Shown: piece after piece, positions 60,845 to 64,000 of the stretch | Layout of the letters: each line of letters opens with the position of its first letter | Position numbering within the stretch: position 1 is the first letter of the stretch | Sequence record: PP400780 | DNA: 64,000 nt | Direction: 5' to 3' (one strand) | Source of the DNA: Escherichia phage FL18 | Translations under genes and position numbers: made by a program | Notes under the pieces: model-generated | What the model was told of the DNA's origin: nothing | What the model saw: only the letters and a program-made list of their open reading frames with translations | The model's database searches: none

Positions 60845-61501
60845 TTATTTAGCCCTTCCTAATATTCTGGCCGCCTGAGCACATATTGATTCAAGGCGGT
60901 CATTACTTATATGATCATTTCTATACCAGTACATGGTTATCGTTCCAGCATAGATATTATCCAAATTAAAATATGGACAACTGTACATGTAGTTTATTTC
61001 GGGAGTAGGCTTTTTAGTTGGTAAAAAAGCAAATTTTGAGTTGGAATAATAATGACGTCCATTTAAATGAACTGTATATTCATCCATAGTTTTATCAACA
61101 GGATATCCTCCAAGTGATTTTTCACTTATTGTTGAAGGTAATTTTCCTTCGTATGCTATAATATCAACAAAATAGTTTAAGTTTTTAGGGCGGAAAGAAT
61201 ACACCGCACTAAAGTCTGCCTCAGATGATATATGAACTATCTGGAGTTGTTCCAGGGCGACAGATTCAAAGCGTGCAGTTCTTTCCTTTTCAATAATTTC
61301 ACGGTATGTTTCATACTTTGATTGCTTATAGTACTCAAAGAAACTATCTCCCCTATACCAAACAATCGCCATTATAAACAAAAGAATTACGACAGCTACC
61401 CGGGAAGCAAGAACTTTCCCGGTAGCGTTATCTTTGAACAAGCGATCTAGAACACCAAATAGAATATCAGAGGGCGAAAATGATATTCTAGGTGCTGCCA
61501 T
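60845..61501 (-). CDS. t: holin T
   Basis: 218 aa; MAAPRISFSPSDILFGVLDRLFKDNATGKVLASR ... single TM then large periplasmic domain; matches recalled T4 gp t; AAGGAGGG SD. Confidence 0.9.
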   Translation of the reverse strand: MAAPRISFSPSDILFGVLDRLFKDNATGKVLASRVAVVILLFIMAIVWYRGDSFFEYYKQSKYETYREIIEKERTARFESVALEQLQIVHISSEADFSAVYSFRPKNLNYFVDIIAYEGKLPSTISEKSLGGYPVDKTMDEYTVHLNGRHYYSNSKFAFLPTKKPTPEINYMYSCPYFNLDNIYAGTITMYWYRNDHISNDRLESICAQAARILGRAK

Positions 61502-61532: not shown

Positions 61533-62306
61533 TTATACTCTTGAACCGTATATTGTACCAACCTTAGTCCATGTTGGGGCATTTCCGGTAACAGCTTTAC
61601 CTGCTGCGCCGCCGTTATATTCTGTACCGTTACCTTGAGTATTACATCTTCCTCCAGCAGCACCAACGTTACCGCCCGCACCGCCTGTATATGCACTAAG
61701 AGACCCCTCACCAACAGATCCTTTACCAGGAGCGGAAATAGTACCAGCAGTTGCACCGGAACTCATATGAGAGGAAGACCCACCAGCACCGAATGGGCAC
61801 CCACCGCCACCGCCAAATATTAGTTTACCCCTGTTACCGCCGCCACCGCCGCCGCCGCCGCCTGCAATAGCTCCGCCATTATTAATTCTTAGTCTCCCAC
61901 CAATATCGTTTTGAATACAATGACCCCCAGCTGAGCCAGGACTATTGCTACCACCATTACCTCCACGACCATACATTGTTACGCCATGTATATTTAACTG
62001 AACATATTCATTTGGTGTATCTCCGTACATGAAGAATAAAGGAACATCTTTAGAATATGATACTAAATCTCCAGTGATATTAAACACTATAGGTGCACTA
62101 CCTGCCTCAAAACATCTATCTCGGAACCATTGACCATTGAAGTTATGGTCTGCTCCAAGTGTGTGAATTACTTCAACAGATCGACCTATCATATTACTCA
62201 TCCAAAACGGAATTCCCATTCTCAATCTCTGTGCGGCACCACCCATCCAAGGATCTCCAGTCTGTACCCTCGCAGACCATCCTACCCACGGTCCTTCAAC
62301 TGCCAT
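61533..62306 (-). CDS. 38: long tail fibre adhesin gp38 (T2-type, glycine-rich motifs)
   Basis: multiple poly-Gly stretches (GGGGGGGGG, GGGGG) separated by short variable segments; ATG at 62306 with GGAG SD preferred over ORF-track GTG at 62312. Confidence 0.7.
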
Positions 62307-62314
62307 ATACACCT

Positions 62315-62336
62315 CCGAGGGGCTGAAGCCCCTCTT
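62315..62336 (-). other. intercistronic hairpin between gene 37 and gene 38 (GAGGGGC-TTCA-GCCCCTC on the minus strand)
   Basis: perfect 7-bp GC-rich inverted repeat between the 37 stop and the 38 SD. Confidence 0.4.
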
Positions 62337-62337
62337 A

Positions 62338-64000
62338 TTATTTTAACAATGATTTAACTAATTTTTTAAGCTCTTCAATCTCTGACTTAAGTTCTGCAAT
62401 TTCTGCAGTATGTTCATTGATTGCAGCTGTATTTAAACCAATTACACCGTTATAGTTCAAACGAAGTAAAGCTTCGCCATCAGGGTCACCTTCAACTAAT
62501 TCAGGCAAAATAGCTTGAACTTCTTGAGCTATCAAACCGGCGTTTGGTTCCCATTTCTGATTACCATCTTCGTCAGTTCCACGTTTCTGCATATATGTGT
62601 AACCATTAATTTTGGAAAGCTTCTCAGAAGCATTTTCAAATTTAATTAAATCCTTTTTAACACGAATATCAGAACGAACATAAACATCGCGGACATATGT
62701 AGAATAGGCATCGCTCTGTTGGACTAAATGACCATGAGAAACGATAGCTCTTCCGGTTTCTGTCCAAAAAGCACCAGTTGTATCCCAAAGCCCAGGATGA
62801 GATTGATAGCCTGCTCCCCAGTTTGCAATATGTATACCATTGGCAACCATATTGATTCGGCCGTCACCACCATGAACTAATCCTGTATCATTATCACCAA
62901 TAACAAGACATGGTCCAGTCCACACTGGGTCGCCACCGCCAGCCGATAATCTTGCTCCGGTTTTAACCATGTTAGGAACATACATAACTCCATTGTGGTG
63001 AAATTCATAGATGGCTTGTGGGCCGGAACCATTTTCCTGATTACCTACACGAATAATACCTTGTGCCCATATATTAGGGGCACGGCGCATACCAAAATCT
63101 ACGCCGGAAAAATATCCTTCATTCGTAATACCAGATCTTCCTTTAATAATAGGATAATAACAGTCATTACTGACACTACCAAAATCCACAAATACAGGAG
63201 CTTCTAAGCCCCATTGGTCACCCCATGCACCGGATTGATGGGCCGACCATTGTGCAGCCTTTATATAAAGGCGGTCCCTATTAAAATAAAAAGTATCCGA
63301 CCCTTGAGGAGCTAAACTAATTTCCCCGCTATTATGAATATTAACACCCGAATTAGTTTGGAAACTATAAAACGATAGGGCGTTATGAGCGCCGCCATTG
63401 CCCACATACCAGTTATTAACGCCTGCTTTTTGTCCTTTCACATAACCAGATTCAGTTGCCGCACTGTTAATAACAATAGCATCCGAGTTTGTATTCAGAG
63501 TTAAACGGCCGGTCATCGTGTCGCCTTCTTTAGAAACACGGGTAGCAATAGCGTCACGGATATTTGTAGTGTCTCCTGCTGAAGTAAACGATTTCCAAAT
63601 ATCCGAGAAAATATTACCATTTCTAGCAATAGTAGCTTCACCGCCGCCGACCTGAACGTTATCTGGGAAGTTAACAGTACCGTCTTGATTAAAACGAGAC
63701 GTATGGCCTTGTGATCCATCTTCTTTGATATGGTGTAAAACAAATGTACCCGAATTAATTTCAGTACCTAAAGACCAAACGCATTTACCGTTTAAAAACT
63801 TCTGTTTAACAATAGGATAATATTTGCTTACAGCATCATCGATTTCCTGGAAAATAGGAGCCGCTTGAGCATATTGAATGTCATAACCGCCAGCTCCCGC
63901 ACCGTGACCAGTAAATTTAATATAGCCGTTTGCTGCGAACGTATTGTAACTTGATTGTAAATCTGGAATAGTAACTTTACCAGTATCTAAAGCCATACTA
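62338..64000 (-). CDS. 37: long tail fibre distal subunit gp37, C-terminal part (5' end lies beyond the window)
   Basis: C-terminal intramolecular-chaperone-like domain ([31 protein letters not shown] ... [14 protein letters not shown]); open to window edge. Confidence 0.75.

Follow-up and report, generated by a model that had tools for sequence, protein, structure and literature searches.

Which protein at the distal end of the long tail fibre of Escherichia phage FL18 recognizes the host, and what part do the runs of glycine codons within its gene play in the evolution of that recognition? The stretch of DNA analysed here (64,000 nucleotides from PP400780, hereafter the window) ends in two minus-strand genes, 37 and 38, which the initial annotation had read as a fibre subunit and a glycine-rich adhesin. 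We consider it very likely, with no observation at odds with this view, that FL18 carries its distal long-tail-fibre and host-range module here, in which a self-cleaving gp37 is capped by an OmpA-dependent gp38 and specificity modules are exchanged at Gly-codon tracts. Publications already cover the module with its fold and receptor, and the phage itself. The locus serves as a worked example in which the receptor, OmpA, can be assigned from sequence alone and a module swap is visible at a poly-Gly tract, and it is relevant to the rational engineering of host range in T-even phages. To what is published it adds two small points, namely that the public annotation of FL18 gp38 is truncated and that position 170 carries a natural variant, which tests a published contact prediction. 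Coordinates of the features are given in Table 1.

Table 1. Features of the gene 37-gene 38 region, listed in minus-strand order (positions in the window)
Feature	Position	Strand	Comment
Gene 37, distal long tail fibre subunit, C-terminal 553 codons + stop	62338-64000	-	Cut by window end
Predicted mature gp37 tip, fragment residues 363-441, ends DVYVR	62674-62910	-	6f45_A match; PMC7917993
Intramolecular chaperone/Peptidase_S74, 111 aa, from Ser442 (SDIRVKK)	62341-62673	-	
7-bp GC-rich hairpin	62317-62334	.	Between gp37 stop codon and gp38 Shine-Dalgarno; conserved among relatives
Gene 38, T2-type adhesin gp38	61533-62306	-	257 aa + stop
gp38 N-terminal attachment domain Gp38_N, residues 1-40	62187-62306	-	PF21721, 1.3e-19
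gp38 specificity region, approximately residues 113-236	61599-61970	-	Gly-rich motifs alternating with hypervariable segments
Bas45-like OmpA specificity module	61533-61862	-	11/330 nt differ from PaulHMueller gp38
Nine-Gly run G149-157 (GRM3)	61836-61862	-	Codons GGC x5, GGT, GGC, GGC, GGT
HVS2, NRGKLIF	61815-61835	-	21 unique bases separating both Gly-codon tracts
Five-Gly run G165-169 (GRM4)	61800-61814	-	Codons GGC GGT GGC GGT GGG
Cys170, codon TGC	61797-61799	-	Arg in most family members
T holin	60845-61501	-	PF11031, 4.5e-118

Both genes lie where the initial annotation had placed them, and on the minus strand the order is gp37, gp38, and the T holin, as it is in relatives. Only the C-terminal half of gp37 is present, and the Met at 63996 is internal, its counterpart in the 1103-aa gp37 of Ac3 being residue 551. 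For gp38 we take the ATG at 62306 as the start, which has GGAGG 6 nt upstream; the longest open reading frame reaches a GTG at 62312. From residue 21 to residue 257, a span of 237 aa, the sequence matches the annotated FL18 adhesin (Lutz et al. 2025) with 100% identity. That annotation begins at Met21 and is thus 20 codons shorter than the reading frame described here, and the additional codons contribute Trp7 and Trp20 of the attachment domain.

The properties of gp38 are those of a T2-type tip adhesin rather than of a T4-type assembly chaperone, as had been proposed from its poly-Gly runs. It matches the Pfam family GP38 (PF05268) across the full profile positions 1 to 218 (2.7e-70, 237.1 bits, cut-off 25), and its N terminus matches Gp38_N with 70.3 bits (cut-off 25). 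Among solved structures, its sequence matches gp38 of PP01 (9V85, 9.4e-78) and gp38 of S16 (6F45_D, 2.1e-50), and the same two entries are the only significant PDB matches (9v85, E = 2.8e-25; 6f45_D, E = 4.9e-21) of an AlphaFold2 model built from 59 homologues (pLDDT 88.5). The best structural match is PP01 gp38, which superimposes with a TM score of 0.88 by target length and an rmsd of 2.0 Å and is 65% identical, but which differs in its hypervariable loops A to E and in its receptor, OmpC of E. coli O157. Glycine makes up 25% of gp38 overall and 35% of residues 113 to 257. The several poly-Gly runs separating short variable segments that were initially reported proved to be 13 runs of at least two glycines, the longest being G149-157 with nine and G165-169 with five. 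Alignments of 8 close relatives and of 59 homologues show that the Gly runs are constant and that the segments between them vary. This is the architecture of the gp38 proteins of T2, T6, K3, Ox2, M1, and Ac3, which have five glycine-rich motifs with four hypervariable segments between them. As the fold match suggests, the Gly runs would form polyglycine-II helices packed into a rigid sandwich that displays the hypervariable loops for receptor contact, with the correspondence between these loops and those of PP01 taken from alignment and from PMC12892980.

At the opposite end of the protein, the attachment domain carries three tryptophans, Trp7, Trp20, and Trp35, which are invariant in the 8-sequence alignment; Trp7 and Trp20 are invariant across the 59 homologues as well. 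In S16, three Trp prongs of gp38 plug into the gp37 tip (PMC6851490). The S16 gp37-gp38 complex (PDB 6F45, Dunne et al. 2018) resembles the FL18 proteins in its trimeric gp37 beta-helix, its S74 chaperone, and an aligned cleavage motif, and S16 gp38 does so as a monomer in which three Trp prongs are combined with a beta-helix and a polyglycine-II sandwich. S16 gp38 is, however, only approximately 43% identical, has other loops, targets Salmonella OmpC, and has a central run of 8 glycines versus 9 in FL18. By analogy with S16, one gp38 would dock on the exposed gp37 tip through its three-Trp N-terminal domain.

The docking site itself would be exposed by processing of gp37. Residues 442 to 501 of the gp37 fragment match Peptidase_S74 (PF13884; E = 1e-12, 48.6 bits, cut-off 22), and a heptad coiled-coil tail follows the match, so the chaperone-like C terminus noted at first reading is real; a match to Pfam gp37_trimer fell below its cut-off (20.9 vs 21.7 bits) and was set aside. 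Fragment residues 363 to 552 align to S16 gp37 (6F45_A, 1.4e-44), and the part of this alignment that corresponds to the mature tip is homologous to the gp38-docking beta-helix of S16 gp37. At the boundary between tip and chaperone, S442-D-I-R-V-K447 aligns to S-D-R-R-I-K of S16 (pattern S-D-x-R-x-K). We take the Ser and Lys to be the catalytic residues of this domain, following MEROPS family S74. The autocleavage site of S16 gp37 has been mapped to DLNVS↓SDRRIKK (PMC7917993), and since this site aligns to DVYVR-SDIRVKK in FL18, release of the 111-aa chaperone is predicted, with the cut falling between Arg441 and Ser442. In T2 and T6, the C terminus of gp37 is likewise cleaved, after which gp38 caps the fibre (Trojet et al., PMC3157838). 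Proteolytic removal of the chaperone, suggested initially from its position, thus finds support in homology, through the S74 match, the S16 alignment, and the statement for T2 and T6. By analogy with S16, T2, and T6, gp37 would fold as a trimeric beta-helix with the aid of its own S74 chaperone, which would then cut itself off at VYVR↓SDIRVKK.

The receptor of FL18 has been determined genetically. FL18 is a Mosigvirus that came from piglet faeces and was isolated on MG1655; it loses infectivity upon deletion of ompA, is classed as "type 2" with a narrow host range, and uses OmpA variants 1, 3, and 4, a pattern common to FL12 and FL20 (Lutz et al. 2025, npj Viruses, PMC12032242). The BASEL phage Bas45 (PaulHMueller, a Tequatrovirus) is also OmpA-dependent, as complementation confirms (PMC8594841), whereas the receptor of FL23 is Tsx. 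We compared the variable segments of gp38 with those of adhesins whose receptors are known, an alignment that the initial annotation had proposed, and they match the OmpA phages FL20, FL12, and Bas45. The hypervariable segments cluster with the type 2 set (FL12, FL18, and FL20), and the C-terminal domain shares 86% identity with FL20 and FL12 and approximately 58% with the next cluster, phiE142/RB5, by tblastn. That search placed FL20 and FL12 first and missed Bas45, probably due to low-complexity masking, but Bas45 was found when the last 93 nt were used as the query. Residues 146 to 257 are the same in Bas45 gp38 except for R170C, and the DNA identity of the hypervariable part to the Tsx phage FL23 is only 57 to 63%. 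Across phages, receptor use follows the gp38 hypervariable type; in step with their hypervariable sets, T6 uses Tsx, T2 uses FadL/OmpF, and K3, Ox2, and M1 use OmpA. The published ompA deletion result for FL18 itself, together with the OmpA dependence of Bas45, supports the view that gp38 recognizes the receptor, as had been thought probable, with OmpA being a genetic requirement in both phages. The hypervariable loops would contact E. coli OmpA at its outer loops, for which the genetic dependence comes from the literature and the contacts are predicted.

The resemblance to Bas45 ends abruptly within the gene. DNA identity to Bas45 is 40 to 76% per 45-nt bin upstream of 61862, and from there to past the stop codon it is 89 to 100% (approximately 97% overall). 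In a triplet test with the window, FL23, and Bas45, the best breakpoint fell between 61863 and 61862, where the nine-Gly tract begins; its 5' side has 190 of the 193 FL23-like sites, and its 3' side has 100 of the 102 Bas45-like sites (Fisher p ~1e-72 from a best-cut search, uncorrected). FL23 and the window are near-identical through the end of the Gly tract and diverge directly after it. The gp37 chaperone and the N-terminal third of gp38 are 93 to 100% identical at the DNA level to Ac3, FL23, Pu-Krd-SF5, and UoN_LDJ77 versus approximately 50% to FL20 and FL12, and Ac3 and FL23, which share the attachment-domain type, are the closest relatives of the 5' part of gene 38. Bas45, by comparison, shares with FL18 the 97% DNA identity from Gly tract to stop and the OmpA receptor, but its residues 1 to 140 are of another sequence type (40 to 60% DNA identity), suited to a different gp37 tip. 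The central beta-helix part of gp38 is conserved in all relatives that were compared, and the hypervariable part groups with the OmpA-type phages.

Exchange of specificity determinants by recombination in or close to the conserved glycine-rich motifs has been proposed (Tetart et al. 1998; Trojet et al. 2011, PMC3157838), and the junction in FL18 fits this model. What the junction marks is the meeting of two ancestries rather than a mechanism or a direction, and we suggest that the poly-Gly tract may be where a Mosigvirus and a Tequatrovirus backbone exchanged a specificity module. The Gly-codon tracts would then act as short patches of homology for module exchange, a process that we infer from the junction. 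Because this comparative evidence matches the motif exchange proposed by Tetart and Trojet, the early remark that the repeat might be prone to recombination is supported by the sharp junction where the 27-nt Gly tract begins. The flanks of the gp37-gp38 region are 95 to 98% identical to Mosigvirus genomes, and its closest match in an annotated phage collection in which FL18 is absent has 87.8% DNA and 91% protein identity. Taken by itself, the best DNA match of 87.8% suggested a new adhesin, a reading ruled out by the exact match to the FL18 protein.

As DNA, these tracts are more repetitive than their coding function calls for. GGC accounts for 9 of the 14 codons in the two Gly runs versus 7 of the 50 other Gly codons in gp38 (Fisher p = 4e-4). 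The initial annotation had described a single long repeat at 61801-61870, which overstates what is present; repeats do exist there, but as two tracts of 27 nt and 15 nt with 21 non-repeat bases between them. Tandem Repeats Finder likewise reports two short arrays, at 61801-61815 (CCACCG x2.5) and 61837-61862 (CCG x8.7), which correspond to the codons for G165-169 and G149-157 respectively, and the longest perfect unit in the tracts is (GGC)5.

Repetition of this kind raises the possibility that the tracts form a contingency locus, in which slippage adds or removes GGC units and so varies the adhesin and, with it, the host range. The perfect (GGC)5 and the enrichment of GGC in the Gly runs are what such a locus would offer, and length variants do occur in metagenomes, where the run of P0069 is 4 Gly long and a run-to-run deletion has removed HVS2 from P0019, P0026, and P0028. 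The long run nevertheless has exactly 9 Gly in all 8 of the close relatives despite synonymous GGC/GGT changes, and among 120 cluster representatives it has 9 or 8 Gly according to the type of HVS2 that follows. In addition, deleting a glycine-rich motif abolishes adsorption of T6 (PMC3157838), and the long run of S16 is the central polyglycine-II helix, with its hydrogen bonds to neighbouring helices fully satisfied (PMC6851490). Because of this length constancy, the tracking of HVS2, the loss of T6 adsorption, and the role of the helix in S16, we reject the contingency-locus reading, which we regard as highly improbable. The accompanying suggestion that the repeat is prone to slippage likewise finds no support among the eight aligned relatives, in which run length is invariant, and length variation is confined to the few metagenomic variants.

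Two further readings would assign recognition differently. Under a T4-type arrangement, gp38 would be an assembly chaperone absent from virions and the gp37 C terminus would bind the receptor; the gene does lie where T4 has its gene 38, flanked by gene 37 and holin t, but position is all that it shares with this scheme, as gp38 matches adhesin families and adhesin crystal structures only, gp37 ends in a removable S74 chaperone without a receptor-binding needle, and the receptor used goes with the hypervariable type of gp38 across phages. We consider this arrangement almost certainly wrong. The other reading keeps gp38 as the adhesin but has it recognize a receptor beyond or instead of OmpA, such as Tsx, LPS, or another porin, through Cys170 and its mosaic ancestry. 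Residue 170 is unusual in FL18, being Arg in 107, Cys in 3, and Trp in 2 of the 112 scorable family representatives, and of the 11 nucleotide differences from Bas45, the one that alters the protein is TGC (Cys170) versus CGC (Arg). The corresponding R172 in FL20 numbering was predicted in silico to make the main contact of type 2 adhesins with loop 1 of OmpA (Lutz et al.), so the residue replaced in FL18 is a predicted OmpA contact; FL18 is also alone among type 2 phages in infecting ECOR33 weakly (PMC12032242), and two receptors are used by other T-even phages. FL18 nonetheless requires ompA, with the same OmpA variant pattern of 1, 3, and 4 as FL12 and FL20, and Bas45, which has Arg at that position, is likewise OmpA-dependent. 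A receptor beyond or instead of OmpA thus seems very unlikely to us, and OmpA recognition by gp38 remains the preferred reading.

Within that OmpA-dependent reading, Cys170, which adjoins GRM4 and despite which FL18 keeps the type 2 OmpA phenotype, could still have consequences of its own. R170C might tune host range, as in the weak infection of ECOR33 that is unique to FL18, or else show that the predicted contact is dispensable, and the GGC-biased tract may stay repeat-like as a crossover site at which specificity modules are swapped between genera. We offer these ideas as speculation and think them unlikely as they stand.

Some minor features of the surrounding DNA complete the description. 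The T4 late-promoter motif TATAAATA was not found near genes 37 and 38 and occurs 2 times in the whole window versus 7.8 expected, and a sigma-70 promoter scan returned matches no more numerous than in shuffled sequence. The hairpin between the two genes looks like a terminator on the plus strand. Finally, the holin and a 153-aa open reading frame of the window are sequences recorded for FL18 alone, matching exactly its proteins XAO15125.1 and XAO15118.1.

The adhesin gene gp38 as read in the window begins 20 codons upstream of the start in the public FL18 annotation, and is preceded by a GGAGG ribosome-binding site. The annotated protein has 237 aa, and its first residue is Met21 of the window ORF. 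Residues 1 to 20 are identical in FL18 and its relatives Ac3 and FL23, and because two attachment-domain tryptophans, Trp7 and Trp20, lie among these missing residues, the deposited FL18 adhesin CDS is probably truncated at its N terminus.

Position 170 of gp38, which follows the second long Gly run, is Arg in 107 of the 112 family representatives, Cys in 3 and Trp in 2; FL18 carries Cys. This residue corresponds to R172 in the numbering of FL20, an OmpA type 2 phage, and in silico prediction by Lutz et al. (PMC12032242) singles out R172 as the residue through which type 2 adhesins mainly contact loop 1 of OmpA. A253 is another of their predicted contacts, and its place is taken by Thr251 in FL18. 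FL18 nevertheless retains the type 2 OmpA phenotype despite Cys170 (PMC12032242).

Features located in the FL18 tail fiber region (window coordinates)
Feature	Coordinates	Strand	Remark
Cys170 codon (TGC) of gp38	61797-61799	-	
Extra N-terminal gp38 codons	62247-62306	-	Upstream of annotated start
Seven-bp GC hairpin	62317-62334		Between gp37 stop codon and gp38 Shine-Dalgarno sequence
21-nt tandem repeat	62366-62405		1.9 copies, 84% match; inside gp37 chaperone tail

The two long Gly runs (61800-61862) strongly favor GGC, which accounts for 9 of their 14 Gly codons, 7 of 50 in the rest of gp38 and 19 of 68 in the gp37 fragment. This preference could reflect homogenization, or selective pressure to keep the DNA sequence itself conserved where crossovers occur. 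A few database gp38 homologues differ in these runs: P0019, P0026, and P0028 have deletions from one Gly run to another that remove HVS2, the segment lying between the two long runs, and P0069 has a 4-Gly run replacing 9, with unchanged flanks. These four may be assembly artifacts or defective variants, and in either case their forms are the expected products of illegitimate exchange between Gly tracts.

One stretch of the gp37 shaft (63200-63550, minus strand) is only 63 to 88% identical to the best relatives, and the closest relative switches along its length, which together suggest further mosaicism in the distal fiber beyond the gp38 module. Closer to the gp37 C terminus, the tandem repeat encodes two coiled-coil heptads, EIAELKS and EIEELKK. 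The 1998 gp37 translation of Ac3 (AF060870.1) diverges from that of the window at residues about 605 to 700, and since this stretch reads like an alternative frame of the window, frameshift errors in that record are suggested.

T4 intercistronic regions are known for stable CUUCGG hairpins, and the hairpin between gp37 and gp38 is similar, with a C(UUCA)G loop in FL18 whereas most relatives have C(UUCG)G. It is conserved even where its flanks are only ~50% identical, and includes one compensatory pair. On the plus strand it is trailed by a T-run and resembles an antisense-transcript terminator.
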